A stretch of DNA of 64,000 nucleotides from Escherichia coli (GTDB lineage Bacteria > Pseudomonadota > Gammaproteobacteria > Enterobacterales > Enterobacteriaceae). The stretch lies in assembly GCF_009931435.1 (NCBI RefSeq), contig NZ_CP043414.1. One strand, written 5' to 3'. The notes under the pieces were generated by a model that was given only the letters and a program-made list of their open reading frames with translations, did no database searches and was not told the origin of the DNA. Made by a program: the position numbers and the translations under genes. Numbering within the stretch: the first letter of the stretch is position 1; each line of letters starts with the position of its first letter. This document shows, piece after piece, positions 9,759 to 26,368 of this stretch.

Positions 9759-10330
9759 TGAAAATAATCGACATAAAGGCGATGAAATACCTGGAAGACG
9801 GGTCTGTTTCCTGTGAAGTGTTGTTTGGAGGGCGGGCTGATTATATTCCTTATCGTGCAGTGGAAAATGATTCTGCTGCATCAGGCCAGCGGGTATGGGG
9901 AACACTGATGAGCGGTGAGTTTGGTGAAATCATCCCCTTCACTGTAACAGCAGAGATGCTGGACAAAGAAAAAGAACTGAAAAAAGAGGAAATCAGGCGC
10001 TGGCGAACAGAACAGGAGGCGCAGCCGTTCACATTCGAATGGAACAGCAGCACATGGAATGGAGGAAAATCCTCACTGGAACGCTTATTCCCGGCAGTGA
10101 TGGCAGCAAAATCTGGTGTGGCACACAATGCCACAGTATGGAGTGATGCAAATAACCAACAAATTAAATTGTCACAACAAAAGCTGGAAGAACTACTTAC
10201 GGCAATGGTGCAGGCTCAGGCTGCACGCAACGATGAGATTTACCTGCGCCAGCGTGAGATGAAAAACACGCTGGCCACACTGAATAACATTGCTGCAATT
10301 AGGGCATTTCAGGTGGGCAAAGCAGAATGA
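9758..10330 (+). CDS. tail fibre assembly chaperone for fibre 2
   Basis: 190 aa starting MKIIDIKAMKY; ATG overlaps fibre 2 stop; coiled-coil-like C-terminus. Confidence 0.5.
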   Translation: MKIIDIKAMKYLEDGSVSCEVLFGGRADYIPYRAVENDSAASGQRVWGTLMSGEFGEIIPFTVTAEMLDKEKELKKEEIRRWRTEQEAQPFTFEWNSSTWNGGKSSLERLFPAVMAAKSGVAHNATVWSDANNQQIKLSQQKLEELLTAMVQAQAARNDEIYLRQREMKNTLATLNNIAAIRAFQVGKAE

Positions 10331-11040
10331 AATGGAAAGAGGTAATTTTACGTCCGTCTGCCATAAACATTAAATGTTCTGTGGTTTGTCTTCATCCGTG
10401 GTCAGAAAATACCGGAAACATCAAACCATCGGGGCGTTATCTCAGCCCCGAAAATGCTGTATCTGCACTTTTACCCTACCTGAAAGAAAGCACAGAAAAA
10501 GACATTGTGGCGCTGTTGTTTTGCGCTCCTTCTGCTGGCGAGTTTTTATCACTCGCCAGGCAATTTTCAGGCGCATTTCCATTGCCAGAGGTGGGGCGAA
10601 TGTCCCGCATGATTTCCAGTCAACTTTCACTGGCCATCAGCAGAATGCAAATCCCCGCCAGACCGGCAACATCACTTCCGGAACCGATAATGCTGTCGAC
10701 ACAGACCACTCGCAGCATGTCGCTGGCAGCAACCATTGCACAGGCAGCCACTCCTGCCGCCACATCACCGGAAACATTGTCATCATCGCTGCATCAGTTC
10801 ATGAATGCGAGAGATAAAGCCTTACAGGAAATCGCTGATCAGCAGGCCGCACTCCGGCAAAAAGTTTGCCCGGTGTGGCGCTTTTGCTACAAGGGAGCCC
10901 TTAGCCAGGCTGCAGTGCTGATACAAAAAAACATCCCACACCCCGAGTGGGTTTTTACAGCTGTGATGCTGTTCGTCGGCGATAATCTCTCATCACTAAG
11001 GGAAGCACTACATGACCCAGATGATTGTCCTTGCGCTTGA
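10327..11040 (+). CDS. hypothetical protein (Ser/Thr/Ala-rich)
   Basis: 237-aa ORF, ATGA-coupled to the upstream gene; no family recognised. Confidence 0.4.
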   Translation: MKWKEVILRPSAINIKCSVVCLHPWSENTGNIKPSGRYLSPENAVSALLPYLKESTEKDIVALLFCAPSAGEFLSLARQFSGAFPLPEVGRMSRMISSQLSLAISRMQIPARPATSLPEPIMLSTQTTRSMSLAATIAQAATPAATSPETLSSSLHQFMNARDKALQEIADQQAALRQKVCPVWRFCYKGALSQAAVLIQKNIPHPEWVFTAVMLFVGDNLSSLREALHDPDDCPCA

Positions 11041-11587
11041 CGGGGAAGCCATTCTGCTGCGTAACATCACCGTCAGCGCCACCATGCAACTACCGGACAA
11101 AGATATGTCCGGACAGTCAACCAGCACCACGAGCGCCCAGCAGGGAAACAAGGCTAAAGAGCTGCGCGTGTCGGGGGTTATTGATTTTAACGATGAAGCT
11201 ATTCTGACCCGTATTTTTCAGCTTGCGGAGGCAACAGAAAGCAACGGTGCTAAAAAAACATATCGCATTGCTAACGCTACCGCGAAGGCAATCAATATGC
11301 GACAGGGGGTGTTTTCTGGTGGCATTGATGCCACGGAACAACAGGGAAAAATGCACTGGCAGATCACCTTTACTCTCAGGGAAAAATTAAGCGTGCCAGA
11401 GAAAGCATCCGCACGCAGCGGTTCGCAGAAAACCATCGCCAGACAGCAGACCCAGAATGGCAGCGAACAGGTACCAGACAAAGGCATGAATACGCAAAGT
11501 TCGTTCTGGAAAAAAATCAATGATGCCGTTGGCTCTGGTCTGGATGCTGTTGGCATCGGGAGCGTGAAAGAGGAAGGGAAAACATGA
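11012..11587 (+). CDS. tail protein, possibly gpU-like
   Basis: 191 aa; segment LRVSGVIDFND...MHWQITFTLRE loosely resembles the P2 gpU family as I recall it; immediately 5' of a hub-like gene, matching P2 U-D order. Confidence 0.35.
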   Translation: MTQMIVLALDGEAILLRNITVSATMQLPDKDMSGQSTSTTSAQQGNKAKELRVSGVIDFNDEAILTRIFQLAEATESNGAKKTYRIANATAKAINMRQGVFSGGIDATEQQGKMHWQITFTLREKLSVPEKASARSGSQKTIARQQTQNGSEQVPDKGMNTQSSFWKKINDAVGSGLDAVGIGSVKEEGKT

Positions 11588-13281
11588 AATTGATACAACG
11601 CTGCATGATTAATGGCGAACGGGTGGAAATTGCCGATATAAGCCTTGTTCTTACCCTGAATGCTGCCGGTCGTGGCTTCATTTCTGTTAACAATCTGTCA
11701 CCCGAACACAGCCTTGCCGGCGCAATGGTACAAATTGATCTCGGCCGTGACGGTGAAGCATGGCGCTATTTCTCCGGCTACATTGAGCGCGATCAACCTG
11801 CTGAAAATGGCTCACGTCGCCTTTTTATTCGTGAAGCGGCTGCTGTGCTGGATTTTGATTTCCCTTGCTCCATGCAACACCCGACGTTGCGGGGGGTACT
11901 CGATAATCTGGGGCGACAAAGCGGTATCGTTTTTATCACTCCGGATGCGGATTATGCCAGTATACCAACTCCCTACATCACCCACAGCGGCAGCGGAGCA
12001 CAACTGCTCAGCCAACTGGGGCGAGCATTCAGTATCAGCGATTACGTCTGGCACCCTATGCCGGACGGTTCTGTATTTGTGGGAAGCGCAGCTGATTCAC
12101 GATTTGCCAGTATTACAATGCCGGATATTCCGCAACAGTACACACTCGGGCAAAGCGGCGGAAACAGCATCGACATCATGTTTATGGAAACTGTGCGACC
12201 GGGCGTGAACCTACCGGCCGGGCGCATTACCCGTGTAGCCCTCAACAACGAGAAAATGACCCTGACATGGGAGCGCCTTACCGCCACGGGTACCCCTGTT
12301 TCCAAATCACCATTACGCAGACAAATGGAAACACAGTTCCCAGAACTGGCCAGCGGTACGCTACATACCCGGCTGGCGCGCGTCATTGCGCCAACGGAGC
12401 CCACCACCCTGGGCGACGTGGCCGACAGTTTCCGCCCACGCTACGCCGTCGATGTGCAGTTGCTTGATGAGAACGGCAACGATAAAAGCGACACGCCCGT
12501 TTACCCGGCAGTACCGCTCCCCGTCCCCATGGCTGGCAGTGAGGCGGGATGTTTTGCCTACCCACCGGCAGGCACCATCGTGGAAATATCCAACATTGAA
12601 GGACGTCCGGACAAACCCGTTATCAGGCAAATCTTACCCGCTGGCCATAACCTGCCTGATGTAAAGCCCGGCGAACAGCTGCAGCAACAGCGCGCAGAAG
12701 TGTTTCAGCGCGTCACGACTGACGGAAGCTGGCACAGAGAAACCGATCAGCAAATCAGGGAGCATTCAGCCAGACGAACCATTAACAGCGATCAGGAAGA
12801 ACGCACAACAACAACCAGAACAACAACAGTACAGGCAAACGACATAACCAGCGTTCTGGGAACCAGCAAGCTGATGACAGGCCAGACAGAACACATTACT
12901 ACTGGTCATTATGCGATCGCAGCCGGTGAGCATATCCAGATGGTAGCGCAGGATTTGCTGACTAAACTCAAAGGGGCGACATCCACGATTGAGCGCGACC
13001 TTACTGAAAACGTGGGAGGCCGCAGAACATGCCGGGCGGACGGTGGTCTGGAGTTTACAGCCCCGACAGTATTTATTGGTCGCGGTGGCTCACGGGAAAA
13101 ATCCGGACTTAATCTGCTGACGTTGTTGATTGATATTCTGGATCTGGTTCAGTTGCTGGCCACACACACTGCAAACCACACCCACAGCAACACCGGCGCA
13201 CCAACAAACAACAGCGAACTTGCCGCAGACGCCAAACAGGCTACGAGCCTGCGCGAAAAATACGGTGACCTTATCGCCTGA
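11584..13281 (+). CDS. baseplate hub protein, gpD/gp27/VgrG-like
   Basis: 565 aa; N-terminal pattern ...ISLVLTLNAAGRGF...AMVQIDLGRDGEAWRYFSGYIER is typical of Phage_GPD/VgrG N-domains; Thr-rich stretch EERTTTTRTTTVQ; last gene of the tail operon. Confidence 0.5.
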   Translation: MKLIQRCMINGERVEIADISLVLTLNAAGRGFISVNNLSPEHSLAGAMVQIDLGRDGEAWRYFSGYIERDQPAENGSRRLFIREAAAVLDFDFPCSMQHPTLRGVLDNLGRQSGIVFITPDADYASIPTPYITHSGSGAQLLSQLGRAFSISDYVWHPMPDGSVFVGSAADSRFASITMPDIPQQYTLGQSGGNSIDIMFMETVRPGVNLPAGRITRVALNNEKMTLTWERLTATGTPVSKSPLRRQMETQFPELASGTLHTRLARVIAPTEPTTLGDVADSFRPRYAVDVQLLDENGNDKSDTPVYPAVPLPVPMAGSEAGCFAYPPAGTIVEISNIEGRPDKPVIRQILPAGHNLPDVKPGEQLQQQRAEVFQRVTTDGSWHRETDQQIREHSARRTINSDQEERTTTTRTTTVQANDITSVLGTSKLMTGQTEHITTGHYAIAAGEHIQMVAQDLLTKLKGATSTIERDLTENVGGRRTCRADGGLEFTAPTVFIGRGGSREKSGLNLLTLLIDILDLVQLLATHTANHTHSNTGAPTNNSELAADAKQATSLREKYGDLIA

Positions 13282-13880
13282 TCACCGGGCATACCCCCCC
13301 ATAAACGCCCATCACGCAACGCACGGCTCCGGTCGTGCGTTTTCATATCTGCCACCTGATTAATGCGTTCTGCGTGCCATTCTGGCGCTGTATGCGCACA
13401 CCGCGTAAACGGTGTGACGTAAAGCGTGAGGTGACGTAAACCGCGCTACCCCCTCCAACCCGCGGGTTTCGTGTCGAAACAGTTTTTCAGTTTTCTGCCG
13501 TGCAAAAATGACCGCCAGCCCGCGCAGCAACTGAGGGAAAAGCGAAGATCTGAAATTTCACGCTTTGAAATTTTTTGCAGTTTTCAAAGTGGTTTTTACG
13601 ATCGCACAAATGGCCGGAGCAATAAAACCGCATGATATTAAAAGAGTTTTCATACTTTACGCGAGACAAAAAAACGATCACGAAAGGATCGCATCAAACA
13701 GCCATCAAACAAAGAAGGCAGACACGGCGCGGCCTGCACAAAATTAAGCTCCAAAATAAAACTGAAAAAAAGGATCGCAACAAGAAGAAAAGCGCGTAAA
13801 ACGATCGCTGCTGATGTGGCGTTTCTTTATACAAGCTGCTATTTGCGATATGCTGAACACATCAACCTGTGGAGTGCATT

Positions 13881-14507
13881 ATGAAACGAAAATCAAAGTC
13901 TGCTGCCATTGCTGCTATTACTACAGCTCTGACAGCATCACTGGCTCCGGTGCCAGCTAAAAGCACGATACTACCAACAACAGTTATTGAATCCGCGACA
14001 CACGCCAGAGTGGTTTCAATGCTTACATTTGAGCATCATGATGGTCAGGTGTTTCTGCCTCTCGAAGAAGCTATTGAATATATCAACGGGCTGAATGACA
14101 ACATGCGCGCCGCGCTCAATGCAGTCATTGAAGAACGACAGAACAGAGGCAAGGGAGCACTGTTTACTGACAAAACCGCAAAAATCATAAAAATATGCGA
14201 AGAGTCAATTAAGCAGCACACCCGTGTTAAAGAGGCTGTCAAAATTGTAATGGATCCGGATAACCTGGCAAAAATGTATCCGGATAGCCTGGAGCAAAGA
14301 ATCGCCTATCGCAATAAACTGGTTCGTTTTGGTCGGGCAATTGCGCAGGGAGAGTTTATCGCTCGTGATGCCATCAACACCATCAAACGAAGCACCGCAC
14401 CAGACAAAACAACCAGCCTGGGCAATACGCTGTCTGACGGAAATGTGAAAGCAATGATTATTGCCGAGCATAAAAACATGGGACTCCCGGCACCGGAGTT
14501 TTCCTGA
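13881..14507 (+). CDS. hypothetical secreted protein (signal peptide)
   Basis: MKRKSKSAAIAAITTALTASLA-PVP has an n-region, h-region and A-x-A site; about 208 aa; stop overlaps the next ATG (TGATG). Confidence 0.5.
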   Translation: MKRKSKSAAIAAITTALTASLAPVPAKSTILPTTVIESATHARVVSMLTFEHHDGQVFLPLEEAIEYINGLNDNMRAALNAVIEERQNRGKGALFTDKTAKIIKICEESIKQHTRVKEAVKIVMDPDNLAKMYPDSLEQRIAYRNKLVRFGRAIAQGEFIARDAINTIKRSTAPDKTTSLGNTLSDGNVKAMIIAEHKNMGLPAPEFS

Positions 14508-14887
14508 TGGCAAGCAAAGTAAGCATTCATAAAGATGTTGAATACCAGGACATTGCAAAAGTTTACGGAAAGGCTCTGGAAAACTGGTTAAATACCGGTG
14601 TTCTCCCTGACAGATTCGGCAATGAAGGGCAGTGGGAAGATAACGCAAGATTATGTGGTTCGTTTGTATATAAATTACACATAAGACTACCGTCAGAACC
14701 ACCATGGAAGAAAAGCAAAGCCCAAATAGACAGAACTTCAAATATCTATCTGGTTTATACAAGGCACTGGATGGATTATGACAATATACAAATCATCAGC
14801 ATCATGGCCCCAGATGCTCACGAAAAAGCCAAAACTTCTTTCATGGCTGAACTGGAAAGACGGGCTGAAGAATTCCAGAACTCATAA
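14507..14887 (+). CDS. YafO-like toxin family protein
   Basis: 126 aa; GVLPDRFG, KLHIRL, IYLVYTRHW and a C-terminal AE..RRAEEF line up with E. coli YafO as recalled from memory (GVLPDTFG, HIHL, HLVY...). Confidence 0.5.
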   Translation: MASKVSIHKDVEYQDIAKVYGKALENWLNTGVLPDRFGNEGQWEDNARLCGSFVYKLHIRLPSEPPWKKSKAQIDRTSNIYLVYTRHWMDYDNIQIISIMAPDAHEKAKTSFMAELERRAEEFQNS

Positions 14888-14906
14888 ATTGCCTGATTTT
14901 CTCTCA

Positions 14907-14940
14907 GAAACCCGCAGCGTAAAAACTGTGGGTTTTCTTT
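14907..14940 (+). terminator. rho-independent terminator after the YafO-like gene
   Basis: gaaacccgcag...ctgtgggttt hairpin followed by TTTTTC. Confidence 0.5.
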
Positions 14941-15178
14941 TTGCTACCCTGATACGTGAGGGTAGCACTCAAAGTGAGGCAATATGTAGGCAACCTATTT
15001 AATACGTAAAAATTAATGCATTAAATGGATATTTACTAGCATGGGTACTGGCTTAAAATATCACAACCCTGTTTTATAACGTACTGAATTTATTAGGTGT
15101 GACGGTTTTCCAATGGGGCTTCCGACATTACGTTCAGCTGATGCTTTTCTTATGTAACGAGAAGACATATATTGGTAA

Positions 15179-15234
15179 GCGATGAAGCGATGAAGCGATG
15201 AAGCGATGAAGCGATGAAGCGATGAAGCGATGTA
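15179..15234. repeat. 8-bp tandem repeat (GCGATGAA) x6 plus one variant copy (GCGATGTA)
   Basis: Read directly: six perfect head-to-tail units then one variant, about 95 bp upstream of the ATPase gene start. Confidence 0.95.
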
Positions 15235-15251
15235 ACGTCTGTTTGGTTATA

Positions 15252-15296
15252 AACTTCACACTAATAATTTCTAAATGAAATTATTAGTGTGAAGTT
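15252..15296. promoter_or_regulatory. perfect 20-bp-arm inverted repeat (candidate operator or RNA hairpin) upstream of the ATPase gene
   Basis: aacttcacactaataatttc (15252-15271) / gaaattattagtgtgaagtt (15277-15296), 5-nt loop; 33 bp before the ATG at 15330. Confidence 0.6.
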
Positions 15297-15329
15297 GATG
15301 TTTATTGTGATTATAACTAAGGAATTAAA

Positions 15330-16799
15330 ATGAAATTATCTCCAGCAGAATTGAAGTTAGAAAGGGGTAAGGTTCAAGATAATAAATTCAATCAATATGT
15401 TAAACGTATCACATTAAAAAATGTCAGAGGGTTTGATGAGGAAATTGTGGAGTTTAAAACACCAGTTACAGCTCTTATCGGGACTAATGGTGGAGGGAAG
15501 TCGACTATATTAGGTGCTGTAGCTCTCGCTTATAAAAATGTTAAGCCAAGCAAGTTTTTCCCTAAATCATTTTATGGGGATGATTCAATGAGTGATTGGG
15601 AAATTGGATTCGAATTGATTGACAAGCCTATTTCAAAAGATAAAAATATTAACAGGACTGCAAAATTTAAACAGATGAAATGGCGCAGAGATAATTTCCC
15701 AGAGCGAAATGTTGTATATGTAGAAATACAAAGAACTGTTCCTGCAGGCGAACTAACTAAGTTTAATAAATTTTTATCTGGCGATGCTAAACAATTTGAA
15801 GAAAAAAATCTCAACCCTGAGACAATAAAATATTGCTCTGCCGTTTTAGATAAAAAGATAGAAGATTACAGATGTATAATAAATAAGCACGATCCATCTT
15901 CAAGAATGTTTGTAGGTAAGGCAATTAATGGTTCTGGTTATTCTCAGTTCCATTTTGGTGCAGGTGAAGCATCAATAATAGATACTATTGATAGAATAGA
16001 GACTGCTGCTGATAATTCTCTTGTTTTAATTGAAGAAATTGAAAATGGACTGCATCCTGTTGCAGTGCGGTTGTTTGTTAACTATTTGACAAATGTAGCA
16101 AAGAGGAAAAAGCTGCAAATAATATTTACAACACATTCGCAGGATGCAGTAAACGAGCTAGAGCCAGAAGCTGTTTGGGCTTCTATTAACAAAAAAGTAT
16201 GGAATGGTAAACTAAGTATTGAAAGTTTACGCGCTATAACGGGACAGAAGATAAATTCGAAAGTTATATATGTTGAAGATTCTTTTGCAAAAGAGTGGGT
16301 TGAAAATGCGATGGATCGATATATTCCAGAACTAGCCTCAACAATAAAAGTCTACACGGCAGGTGGTTACCCCAGCGTGGTTAAAGTAAGTCAATATCAT
16401 AATGAGAACCCTACTATAAATTATCCATCAATCGCATTAGTTGATGGGGATATTAAAGGTAGACCCGGAACTAAAGATCTGCCTGATAATGCAATGTTCA
16501 TCGGGGATGATTATCCTGACGCTACGGTTTTTCATTATATTGCAAATAACATAGAAGAAAATGCCTCAGTTTTGAGGCAAAGATGTTTGTTAACAAGATT
16601 TGACGCTGAAAAGATTAAATCGGAAGTTGAGAGTGTGATGCATTCTGCATGTGATCACCATGTTTATTTTACTAGATTAAGTGATAAATTAGATTTTGCC
16701 TCAGAACTATTCATTCGAGCTGGTATGATAGATTTATTTAATGAGAAAAATCCAGAATTTTGGTCCCCAATTATGGACTTCATTAAAAAAGGTCTATAG
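15330..16799 (+). CDS. ABC-type ATPase fused to a Toprim/DUF4435-like domain (OLD-family or fused-PARIS-like candidate defence nuclease)
   Basis: 489 aa; Walker A GTNGGGKST (K57), signature-like SGYSQFHFGAGEAS, Walker B LVLIEE (E235/E236), H-loop FTTHS; C-terminal VIYVED (E316) and ALVDGD (D372/D374) fit Toprim Glu and DxD; strongly AT-rich; own RBS and terminator. Confidence 0.6.
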   Translation: MKLSPAELKLERGKVQDNKFNQYVKRITLKNVRGFDEEIVEFKTPVTALIGTNGGGKSTILGAVALAYKNVKPSKFFPKSFYGDDSMSDWEIGFELIDKPISKDKNINRTAKFKQMKWRRDNFPERNVVYVEIQRTVPAGELTKFNKFLSGDAKQFEEKNLNPETIKYCSAVLDKKIEDYRCIINKHDPSSRMFVGKAINGSGYSQFHFGAGEASIIDTIDRIETAADNSLVLIEEIENGLHPVAVRLFVNYLTNVAKRKKLQIIFTTHSQDAVNELEPEAVWASINKKVWNGKLSIESLRAITGQKINSKVIYVEDSFAKEWVENAMDRYIPELASTIKVYTAGGYPSVVKVSQYHNENPTINYPSIALVDGDIKGRPGTKDLPDNAMFIGDDYPDATVFHYIANNIEENASVLRQRCLLTRFDAEKIKSEVESVMHSACDHHVYFTRLSDKLDFASELFIRAGMIDLFNEKNPEFWSPIMDFIKKGL

Positions 16800-16865
16800 T
16801 AATAATGCAAAAATATAATATTTAGTTTGCGATTTATATTTTTCATAATGAATTGTTGAGAAAAT

Positions 16866-16900
16866 AAGAGAGCATCGAAAATTGAGGCTCTCTTATTTTT
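16866..16900 (+). terminator. rho-independent terminator of the ATPase gene
   Basis: aagagagc (16866-16873) / gctctctt (16887-16894) stem followed by ATTTTT. Confidence 0.6.
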
Positions 16901-17082
16901 ATGAGATATCTCTAATGTATTAATCGTTTTATTTTGGTGCTACCACCACTGATGCTAACTTGTCGATCAGACATTCGCACTATTCAATATCTTTTAGGCT
17001 CCGCAATGAAAACGCCCCCGAAGGAACAATCCCCCGTCAATCGGTTGCCAAAGGCCATTTAGGTAAATCGCCTTCGAGGTCG

Positions 17083-17346
17083 TTCGATGGCTGCATGACG
17101 TTCCCGGTTATCCCGTCAAAGAAAATGCACTCGACCGGAAAACCAGAAGAACTAATGGCGGAGTTGGTCAGGACTGCGAATAGTGGCGGAACAGTCCTTG
17201 ATCCTTTTATGGGGCCAGGGACAACGGGTGTGGCTGCACTGAAAGCAGGGCGAAAATTTATTGGTATAGAGACCAGTGATCATTATTTTGAAGTAGCAGC
17301 ACAGCGACTTCGGGGGACTATTACCACAACCATTTCGACTACATAA
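17083..17346 (+). pseudogene. C-terminal fragment of a beta-class N6A/N4C DNA methyltransferase
   Basis: ...HSTGKPEELMAELVRTANSGGTVLDPFMGPGTTGVAALKAGRKFIGIETSDHYFEVAAQRL matches the AdoMet-binding FxGxG end of N6_N4 MTases; no DPPY-containing N-terminal part upstream. Confidence 0.6.
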
Positions 17347-17446
17347 GACAAAGCCCGCATTTTTGCGGGCTTGTATATCATTAGTGATGTGGACAGTTTG
17401 TGGATGTTTACAAGAAATAAGCTAATAGAAACAATTTGTTATCTTT

Positions 17447-18028: not shown

Positions 18029-18808
18029 CTAAATCGCTTCAGTTTCACAACTAACAGAATAAAAAAACGGCAGCTCAAGGCTGTAATGCCAGTCAGTTAA
18101 GCAACTGACTGGCTCTTTTTCGGGGCTGTGGGGTATTTCCAGGGCCTCTCCTTTACCACTCTCGGGAAGGCCCTTTCCCTTCTTGTCGGTAATTTCACTG
18201 GCTGTCCCATACTTGCAAGATCGCGCATCAGCTCCGGTATACGTCCCGGTGAAGCGCATGGCGTCCGTCATCGACGTCAGCAGATGGCTGGTCAGTTCCA
18301 TCTGGCAGACCATTTTGACCTGCGGGTAGAGCGCCGGGTTCCCGGCATGTGTCTGGCGGGGGAAGGCTGCATCGTTCTCTGGTGTATCCGGTGTGCGCCA
18401 GAACACACCATCGATGGCCAGCAGGGTCAGGCTGCACCAGTGCGGATGCAGCGTGGCGTTATGCCAGAGCTGCGCTGTTTTCGTGAACACGCGGCGGACA
18501 GCCTCACTTCCCAGGCGCTGGCGGGCCTGAATAACGGCACTGGGGGCAACGAAGGGGCGATTGCCCGGCAGCATGATGTCCAGGCGATTCACAATCTGGT
18601 GAAGAGGTTCTTTACGCTCAAGCGCCATGCCAACAATACACCAGACCATCATTTCGAGGGGAAGACGGCGCTTGCGTAGCGTTACAGTACCTGATTCGGC
18701 AAGGCAACGAGAGATGAGTTCGGGGTCGAGGTAATCCCCCAGAAAAGTCAGTGGGTTACGCAGAGAATCGTAACGGGATACCAAATCAAGGGCCTGTCCA
18801 ATGAGCAT
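18029..18808 (-). pseudogene. IS4 transposase (InsG-like), internal deletion with frameshifted C-terminus
   Basis: First about 178 aa (MLIGQALDLVSRYDSLRNPLTFLGDYLDPELISRCLAESG...QVKMVCQMELTSHLLT) match IS4 transposase as I recall it; then the frame jumps to out-of-frame 3'-end sequence. Confidence 0.65.
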
Positions 18809-21511: not shown

Positions 21512-21573
21512 CCTAAAGAATCAAGACGATCCGGTACGCGTGATTTTCTTTTCACATTAATCTGGTCAATAAC

Positions 21574-21602
21574 CTTGAATAATTGAGGGATGACCTCATT
21601 TA
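21574..21602 (+). promoter_or_regulatory. candidate sigma32 heat-shock promoter of clpB
   Basis: CTTGAAT ... CCTCATTTA about 40 nt before the clpB start; resembles CTTGAAA-N-CCCCATnT. Confidence 0.45.
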
Positions 21603-21640
21603 ATCTCCAGTAGCAACTTTGATCCGTTATGGGAGGAGTT

Positions 21641-24214
21641 ATGCGTCTGGATCGTCTTACTAATAAATTCCAGCTTGCTCTTGCCGATGCCCAATCACTT
21701 GCACTCGGGCACGACAACCAATTCATCGAACCTCTTCATTTAATGAGCGCCCTGCTGAATCAGGAAGGGGGTTCGGTTAGTCCTTTATTAACATCCGCCG
21801 GCATCAATGCTGGTCAGTTGCGCACAGATATCAATCAGGCATTAAATCGTTTACCGCAGGTTGAAGGCACTGGTGGCGATGTCCAGCCCTCACAGGATCT
21901 GGTGCGCGTTCTTAATCTTTGCGACAAGCTGGCGCAAAAACGTGGTGATAACTTTATCTCGTCAGAACTGTTCGTTCTGGCGGCACTTGAGTCTCGCGGC
22001 ACGCTGGCCGACATCCTGAAAGCAGCAGGGGCGACCACCGCCAACATTACTCAAGCGATTGAACAAATGCGTGGAGGTGAAAGCGTGAACGATCAAGGAG
22101 CTGAAGACCAACGTCAGGCTTTGAAAAAATACACTATCGACCTCACCGAACGAGCCGAACAAGGCAAACTCGATCCGGTGATTGGCCGTGATGAAGAAAT
22201 TCGCCGTACCATTCAGGTACTGCAACGTCGTACTAAAAATAACCCGGTGCTGATTGGTGAACCAGGTGTTGGTAAAACAGCCATCGTTGAAGGTCTGGCT
22301 CAGCGTATTATCAATGGCGAAGTACCGGAAGGGCTGAAAGGCCGCCGCGTACTGGCGCTGGATATGGGCGCGCTGGTGGCTGGGGCGAAATATCGCGGTG
22401 AGTTTGAAGAACGTTTAAAAGGCGTACTTAACGATCTTGCTAAACAGGAAGGGAACGTCATCCTGTTTATCGACGAATTACATACCATGGTCGGCGCGGG
22501 TAAAGCCGATGGCGCAATGGACGCCGGAAACATGCTGAAACCGGCGCTGGCGCGTGGTGAATTGCACTGCGTAGGTGCCACGACGCTGGACGAATATCGC
22601 CAGTACATCGAAAAAGATGCTGCGCTGGAACGTCGCTTCCAGAAAGTGTTTGTTGCCGAGCCAACCGTGGAAGACACCATTGCTATTCTGCGTGGCCTGA
22701 AAGAACGTTATGAACTGCACCACCATGTGCAAATTACTGACCCGGCAATTGTTGCAGCGGCGACGTTGTCTCATCGCTACATTGCTGACCGTCAGCTGCC
22801 GGATAAAGCCATCGACCTGATCGATGAAGCAGCATCCAGCATTCGTATGCAGATTGACTCAAAACCGGAAGAACTCGACCGACTCGATCGTCGTATCATC
22901 CAGCTCAAACTGGAACAACAGGCGTTAATGAAAGAGTCTGATGAAGCCAGTAAAAAACGCCTGGATATGCTCAACGAAGAACTGAGCGACAAAGAACGTC
23001 AGTATTCCGAGTTAGAAGAAGAGTGGAAAGCAGAGAAAGCCTCGCTCTCTGGTACGCAGACCATTAAAGCGGAACTGGAACAGGCGAAAATCGCTATTGA
23101 ACAGGCTCGCCGTGTGGGTGATCTGGCGCGGATGTCTGAACTGCAATACGGCAAAATTCCAGAACTGGAAAAGCAACTGGAAGCCGCAACGCAGCTCGAA
23201 GGCAAAACTATGCGTCTCTTGCGTAATAAAGTGACCGACGCCGAAATTGCTGAAGTGCTGGCGCGTTGGACGGGGATTCCGGTTTCTCGCATGATGGAAA
23301 GCGAGCGCGAAAAACTGCTGCGTATGGAGCAAGAGCTGCACCATCGCGTTATTGGTCAGAACGAAGCGGTTGATGCGGTATCTAACGCTATTCGTCGTAG
23401 CCGTGCGGGGCTTGCTGACCCGAATCGCCCGATTGGTTCATTCCTGTTCCTCGGCCCAACGGGTGTGGGGAAAACTGAGCTTTGTAAGGCGCTGGCGAAC
23501 TTTATGTTTGATAGCGACGAGGCGATGGTCCGTATCGATATGTCCGAGTTTATGGAGAAACACTCGGTGTCTCGTCTGGTTGGTGCGCCTCCGGGATATG
23601 TCGGTTATGAAGAAGGTGGCTACCTGACCGAAGCAGTGCGTCGTCGTCCGTATTCCGTCATCCTGCTGGATGAAGTGGAAAAAGCGCATCCGGATGTCTT
23701 CAACATTCTGTTGCAGGTACTGGATGATGGGCGTCTGACTGACGGGCAGGGGAGAACGGTCGACTTCCGTAATACGGTTGTCATTATGACCTCTAACCTC
23801 GGTTCCGATTTGATTCAGGAACGCTTCGGTGAACTGGATTATGCGCACATGAAAGAGCTGGTACTCGGTGTGGTAAGCCATAACTTCCGTCCGGAATTCA
23901 TTAACCGTATCGATGAAGTGGTGGTCTTCCATCCGCTGGGTGAACAGCACATTGCGTCGATTGCGCAGATTCAGTTGAAACGTCTGTACAAACGTCTGGA
24001 AGAACGTGGTTATGAAATCCACATTTCTGACGAGGCGCTGAAACTGCTGAGCGAGAACGGTTACGATCCGGTCTATGGTGCACGTCCTCTGAAACGTGCA
24101 ATCCAGCAGCAGATCGAAAACCCGCTGGCACAGCAAATACTGTCTGGTGAATTGGTTCCGGGTAAAGTTATTCGCCTGGAAGTTAATGAAGACAGGATTG
24201 TCGCCGTCCAGTAA
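21641..24214 (+). CDS. clpB: chaperone disaggregase ClpB
   Basis: 857 aa from [11 protein letters not shown]; two AAA+ modules ([16 protein letters not shown]); the ORF track starts 4 codons upstream. Confidence 0.95.
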
Positions 24215-26197: not shown

Positions 26198-26368
26198 CCT
26201 TAAAGAAGCGTACTTTGCAGTGCTCACACAGATTGTCTGATGAAAAGTGAATAGCAAGGCGTTTACGCGTTGGGAGTGAGGCTGAAGAGAATAAGGCCGT
26301 TCGCTTTCTATTAATGAAAGCTCACCCTACACGAAAATATCACGCAGCGCGTGATAAGCAATTTTCGT

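Follow-up and report, generated by a model that had tools for sequence, protein, structure and literature searches.

The window analysed here is a 64,000-nucleotide stretch of an Escherichia coli genome (contig NZ_CP043414.1), and the gene of interest in it is clpB, located between yfiH and an rRNA operon. The same placement of clpB was found in 5,425 of 5,426 complete E. coli genomes. By direct reading, the gene starts with ATG at 21641-21643, ends with TAA at 24212-24214 and comprises 857 codons. The features at and around clpB are as follows:

21522 to 21660, plus strand: RyfD sRNA element (Rfam RF02768), overlapping the leader of clpB and 20 nt at the start of its coding sequence
21574 to 21601, plus strand: putative sigma-32 heat-shock promoter, CTTGAA-N14-CCTCATTT, read by eye and identical to K-12
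21631 to 21638, plus strand: primary Shine-Dalgarno (SD) sequence GGGAGGAG for the full-length start, -10.2 kcal/mol, in a leader identical to K-12
21641 to 24214, plus strand: full-length clpB coding sequence (ClpB95), 857 aa, 95.6 kDa predicted, matching NF008118
21641 to 22084, plus strand: segment belonging to the long form only, N-terminal domain with residues 1-148 and two Clp_N repeats (Pfam PF02861, PDB 1KHY)
22067 to 22069, plus strand: ATG of Met143, a decoy start six codons upstream of GTG149 and without an SD of its own
22073 to 22079, plus strand: predicted internal SD GGAGGTG, encoded by Gly145 (GGA), Gly146 (GGT) and the first base of Glu147
22085 to 22087, plus strand: predicted internal initiation codon GTG, Val149 in the long form and fMet in the short form
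22085 to 24214, plus strand: predicted nested in-frame coding sequence of ClpB80, 709 aa, 79.9 kDa predicted, at the same offset as YP_010051194.1
26369 to 26444: tRNA-Glu of the rRNA operon downstream of clpB

The identity of the gene product was assessed with protein family models. The NCBIfam equivalog model for ClpB, NF008118, matched with 1926.3 bits (cutoff 1417), residues 1-857 aligning with positions 1-857 of the 857-position model, and TIGR03346 matched with 1470.9 bits (cutoff 1232.1). The models for ClpA, ClpV, ClpK and ClpG each scored under their own cutoff with this protein. Pfam domains followed each other in the order expected for ClpB, with the best stretches at residues 17-68 for Clp_N (two stretches), 203-336 for AAA, 342-442 for AAA_lid_9, 596-760 for AAA_2 and 766-845 for ClpB_D2-small. 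Model match and domain order both place the product among the class 1 Hsp100/Clp AAA+ disaggregases. From the 856 of 857 residues that it shares with K-12 ClpB, we infer that it would act as a disaggregase together with DnaK/DnaJ/GrpE.

The mechanical list of open reading frames opens the clpB frame at ATG 21629 (MGGV-), four codons before 21641. This ATG was rejected as the gene start because it overlaps GGGAGGAG, the SD of ATG 21641, and because the K-12 annotation starts at the equivalent of 21641. The 160 nt upstream of the latter ATG are identical to K-12. They include the putative promoter element at 21574-21601, which resembles the sigma-32 consensus (CTTGAA / CCCCATNT). The RyfD match scored 125.3 bits against a gathering threshold of 42, and ryfD is annotated at the equivalent place in K-12. 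The RyfD element begins upstream of the putative sigma-32 promoter; it belongs to the context of the gene and lies outside the internal start.

A sequence-only reading of this DNA had proposed that codon 149 of clpB, at 22085-22087, is the GTG from which E. coli starts the short isoform ClpB-80, and that this codon is conserved here. Counting from the first base of the gene (21641 + 148*3 = 22085), the bases 22085-22087 indeed read GTG in frame, within the context cgt gga ggt gaa agc GTG aac gat caa, which encodes RGGESVNDQ. Both the coordinates and the codon number were correct, since the annotated K-12 start corresponds to 21641. The codon is preceded by GGAGGTG, all seven bases of which are complementary to the 3' end of the 16S rRNA. 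A spacer of 5 nt (AAAGC) separates GGAGGTG from the GTG, and 7 nt lie between its GGAGG core and the GTG.

We then compared this site with the other potential start codons of the gene, by pairing the -17 to -4 region of all 48 in-frame ATG, GTG and TTG codons of clpB with the anti-SD sequence. Codon 149 reached -10.6 kcal/mol, the top value among the 48 codons, compared with -10.2 kcal/mol for the annotated start and -6.4 kcal/mol for the next internal codon. Without GGA as the codon of Gly145 there would be no GGAGG core, and GGA is the rarest glycine codon in clpB (4 of 63 glycine codons). The region from -30 to +20 around codon 149 had a minimum free energy of -6.6 kcal/mol, a mildly weak structure that lies in the least-structured 11% of such segments of the gene (gene-wide mean -10.5 kcal/mol, sd 3.35); unpaired probabilities over 20 nt around the codon were uninformative. 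When the synonymous codons of clpB were shuffled, a GTG with an equally strong SD appeared at codon 149 in 2.7% of the trials, and an equally strong internal site appeared anywhere in the gene in 20% of them. The signal in this one clpB sequence is thus moderately above chance, which is suggestive, not decisive. The case for an internal start rests on comparison with the verified site of K-12 and Salmonella and on the invariance of the core within E. coli.

In a further step, the window was compared with E. coli K-12. The two clpB genes (b2592 in K-12, with products NP_417083.1 and YP_010051194.1) share the synteny rluD-yfiH-clpB-rrn operon. They differ at 69 of 2,574 bases (97.3% identity), 68 of these differences being synonymous and the sole amino acid change being S342T; a functional effect of these differences is not expected from the sequences. 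Codons 120-152 (99 nt, SD included) are identical, which bears out the proposed conservation of GTG149, and the codon number, the GTG, the GGAGGTG and the spacer are all as in K-12. The nearest difference is a GGT to GGA change in codon 153 (22099), 12 nt downstream of the GTG. Moreover, the K-12 RefSeq record annotates a coding sequence named ClpB80 at this very codon (YP_010051194.1, 2731600-2733729 on the minus strand), beginning 444 nt after the clpB ATG, and the literature documents initiation there; codon 149 is therefore the known E. coli start that the sequence-only reading took it to be.

Conservation of the site within the species was nearly complete. A 32-nt core, which begins with the CAA of Gln142, takes in Met143 and the SD and ends 8 nt after the GTG, was found exactly in 5,416 of 5,426 complete E. 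coli genomes (99.8%). With 71 nt around the site, the K-12 version was exact in 5,355 of 5,425 E. coli genomes and the variant of the window in 18. Outside the genus, Citrobacter werkmanii has the 32 bases from Ile140 to Asn150 (ATTGAACAAATGCGTGGAGGTGAAAGCGTGAA) unchanged, with synonymous changes on either side of them.

The internal GTG start of clpB is a textbook feature that was already known, is annotated in K-12 and was repeatedly verified by experiment. According to bioRxiv 10.1101/520783, the internal starts of clpB, infB and mrcB had all been characterized before, that of clpB by Park et al. 1993. Ribo-RET in E. coli gave a specific ribosome peak at the verified internal site of clpB (bioRxiv 10.1101/520783), and PMC6168691 gives the alternate start of E. 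coli as the GUG at position 149 and the N-terminal domain as residues 1-148. In Salmonella Typhimurium, ClpB with a C-terminal HiBiT tag was detected as two bands (PMC11005335). These correspond to ClpB-L and ClpB-S, the latter starting at an internal GTG at nt 445 (Val149) that is likewise preceded, six codons upstream, by a decoy ATG at Met143 (PMC11005335). Salmonella is another genus, and its likeness to the window is taken from PMC11005335; the enteric DNA comparator used here was C. werkmanii.

The ATG of Met143 (22067-22069) was considered as the start of the short isoform, since ATG is the preferred start codon and an automated Ribo-RET caller placed the internal clpB site of Salmonella at this position (PMC11005335). 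However, Met143 has no preceding SD and was not among the 12 best SD-preceded codons of the 48 in-frame NTG codons scored, and the K-12 RefSeq ClpB80 is annotated from codon 149. Moreover, both ClpB bands remained in Salmonella when the ATG of Met143 was mutated, whereas the short form disappeared when GTG445 was changed to CTT on the chromosome (PMC11005335); this result refutes a start at Met143 for Salmonella. We therefore regard a start at Met143 in the window as very unlikely.

The same mutants bear on the origin of the 80-kDa form by other routes, namely transcription of a shorter mRNA from an internal promoter, or loss of the N-terminal domain by proteolysis. Proteolysis would not predict that a point mutation in a start codon abolishes the short form (PMC11005335). 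An internal promoter has a precedent in the clpB of Leptospira, for which transcription starts upstream of the internal start were reported when the gene was placed in E. coli (PMC6941012). However, a scan inside clpB upstream of GTG149 with the sigma-70 consensus gave no candidate promoter, and in PMC11005335 the alternative start sites lay within annotated or detected transcripts and the differential expression of isoform pairs came mainly from translation. An origin of the short form from a second transcript or from proteolysis is thus extremely unlikely.

Initiation at GTG149 also agrees with the architecture of the protein. The isolated N-terminal domain of ClpB in PDB 1KHY is a chain of 148 residues that aligns to residues 1-148, and a start at codon 149 would therefore drop exactly one folded domain and leave the rest intact; the first AAA domain match begins at residue 203, downstream of codon 149. 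The predicted masses of 95.6 and 79.9 kDa agree with the names ClpB95 and ClpB80. The predicted ClpB80 still matched NF008118 over the ClpB equivalog cutoff of 1417, with 1617 bits over model positions 150-857.

The window thus holds the features of the dual-start clpB gene of K-12, namely an in-frame GTG at codon 149, an SD at functional distance, a surrounding region identical to K-12 and a position at a domain boundary. These were observed here, and other groups have demonstrated initiation at the codon in laboratory strains of E. coli and in Salmonella. Nothing in the window speaks against such a start. We consider it highly probable (about 0.95) that GTG 22085-22087 is a second in-frame initiation site that is used likewise in the strain of the window, and from the identity with K-12 we infer that ClpB80 would be made from it. 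In the mechanism that we propose, a single heat-shock mRNA carrying both starts would be transcribed, probably driven by the putative sigma-32 element at 21574-21601. Ribosomes would bind this mRNA at the 5' site (GGGAGGAG and ATG 21641) and produce ClpB95 with 857 aa, and ribosomes entering independently at the internal site (GGAGGTG, 5-nt spacer, GTG 22085) would produce ClpB80 in the same frame. By the account in PMC6941012, ClpB95 and ClpB80 assemble into hetero-oligomers (mixed hexamers) that surpass each single form in reactivating aggregates, and PMC6941012 and PMC11005335 report that the isoform ratio changes under heat and infection-like conditions. The practical consequence for the window is limited to annotation: automatic pipelines of the PGAP type annotate a single clpB coding sequence and the curated K-12 record has the nested ClpB80; a nested ClpB80 coding sequence (22085-24214) could be added for the strain of the window.

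We then investigated how far conservation of the codon reaches beyond enterics. The survey covered the best 80 of at least 600 matches, clpB loci of Gamma- and Betaproteobacteria (66-97% identity at the protein level); it includes only one member of the Enterobacteriaceae, and one of its search patterns (NDQGAEDQ) is located just downstream of the site. Among these best 80 of at least 600 matches, residue 149 was Val in 73, Ile in 4 and Met in 3. The codons were GTG in 33 and ATG in 3 of the best 80, and GTC in 27, GTT in 8, GTA in 5 and ATT in 4, so that codon 149 was start-capable in 36 of the 80 loci and non-initiating in 44. GTG was not enriched at position 149 of these best 80 loci: it was observed in 33 of them, where the valine codon usage of each gene predicts 36.3 (P = 0.83). 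A strong SD did not co-occur with a start codon in this set either, as it was present in 8 of the 36 loci with a start codon and in 8 of the 44 without (Fisher P = 0.43), and SD strength was alike in start-capable and non-start loci (Mann-Whitney P = 0.12).

Since strong SD-like DNA was equally frequent beside non-start codons, such DNA tends to arise simply from coding for the RGGE peptide. Within codons 11-390 of the best 80 of at least 600 matches, 8 of 26 strong start-like sites fell into codons 140-149, the linker, and this clustering is not a clean sign of selection because the conserved RGGE peptide encodes SD-like DNA. The absence of GTG enrichment and the similar SD strengths in the best 80 would fit an explanation in which GTG149 of the window is merely a valine codon and GGAGGTG a by-product of Arg-Gly-Gly-Glu, with no meaningful initiation. 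In the window, however, the whole initiation region is identical to that of K-12, where initiation was shown directly, the GGAGG core is built with a rare GGA codon, and the 32-nt core does not vary among 99.8% of the E. coli genomes. Because the site is identical to a verified one, a plain valine codon is a very improbable account of it, and initiation at GTG149 remains the preferred reading for the window.

Some loci of the survey carried potential starts close to the site. A strong SD with an in-frame start no more than 9 codons away was found in 9 of the best 80 of at least 600 matches, among them Citrobacter, Rodentibacter, Marinobacter, Alcanivorax and one Thiomicrorhabdus. In Thiomicrorhabdus sp. 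ZW0627 (L036:1027-1032), the homologue of codon 149 is GTA, the next codon is ATG, and GGAGGGG precedes them (-9.8 kcal/mol); judging from this sequence, the internal start may have shifted one codon downstream in that organism. Another match of the survey, among otherwise proteobacterial ones, is a clpB whose product shares 70% identity with E. coli ClpB. It is located on a 1.3-Mb scaffold (JAMPER010000001.1) that bears the label 'MAG: Alistipes senegalensis' (Bacteroidota); the assembly may be mislabelled or mis-binned, or the gene may have been transferred.

Because the start codon is often absent, GTG is not enriched and the SD does not co-occur with a start codon, the start appears conserved in the enteric lineage and not generally. 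It is conserved in Escherichia, in Citrobacter and, by the literature, in Salmonella. At somewhat less than even odds, the internal start could be a trait restricted to enterics and a scatter of further lineages, instead of belonging to ClpB in general. Published claims that GTG149 is 'highly conserved' are based on protein alignments, in which it is Val149 that is seen. A protein alignment in which Val149 is conserved does not show that the start codon is, and this distinction is what a survey at the codon level adds. If the restriction is true, many proteobacteria may make no ClpB80, or may use a different site or another route to it; the question is about genomes other than that of the window.

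Short forms of ClpB are nevertheless on record from non-enterics. Mycobacterium tuberculosis, Leptospira interrogans and Synechococcus each have full-length ClpB and a form of ~80 kDa without the N-terminal domain (PMC6168691; PMC6941012), and the short form of these three organisms was ascribed to internal initiation at the boundary of that domain (PMC6168691; PMC6941012). Their start codon and SD vary by organism, as in Leptospira, which has ATG with AGGGAA. Since the exact codon was often not start-capable in the 80-species sample, the non-enteric isoforms may be independent or shifted solutions. Two further E. coli genes, infB (IF2-alpha/beta) and mrcB (PBP1b), also have one mRNA with two in-frame starts that yield N-terminal proteoforms, as seen by Ribo-RET (10.1101/520783). 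The proteins of infB and mrcB are unrelated to ClpB; in contrast to them, clpB loses a whole folded domain in its short form, and both of its forms mix in one hexamer.

The clpB gene of the window is uncommon within E. coli, as genes at least 99% identical to it were found in only 10 of 5,425 genomes. Together with the 97.3% identity to K-12, this rarity of close matches points to an uncommon E. coli lineage or a recombinant segment. Upstream of clpB, positions 1-17400 of the window (~17.4 kb) hold the lysis, tail and baseplate end of a prophage, which adjoins raiA. The features in this part of the window are the following:

1216 to 3312: tape measure gene of the prophage
15330 to 16799: ATP-dependent nuclease of the prophage
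within 1 to 17400: baseplate J/gp47, tail fibres and assembly proteins, a YafO-family toxin and a truncated DNA methyltransferase
18029 to 18808, minus strand: ORF of 259 aa between raiA and bamD, a remnant of an IS4-family transposase

At least 80% of the prophage region was covered in only 9 of 5,426 complete E. coli genomes, the best being that of the bovine strain 7_33_46A (99.5%). The genome closest to the window at clpB has pheA/pheL in place of the prophage. In strain 2020CK-00188 the IS4-family remnant is annotated as a pseudogene with a frameshift; strain 7_33_46A lacks it, and the gap between raiA and bamD measures ~270 nt there. The window thus shares a feature with each of its two closest genomes, the IS remnant with 2020CK-00188 and the prophage with 7_33_46A. 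Downstream of clpB, the spacer between the 16S rRNA gene and tRNA-Glu (26263-26368) has ~106 nt that are unaligned with ~20 nt in strain 2020CK-00188, which is otherwise 99.7% identical; this difference is presumably intergenic spacer heterogeneity in the rRNA operon.
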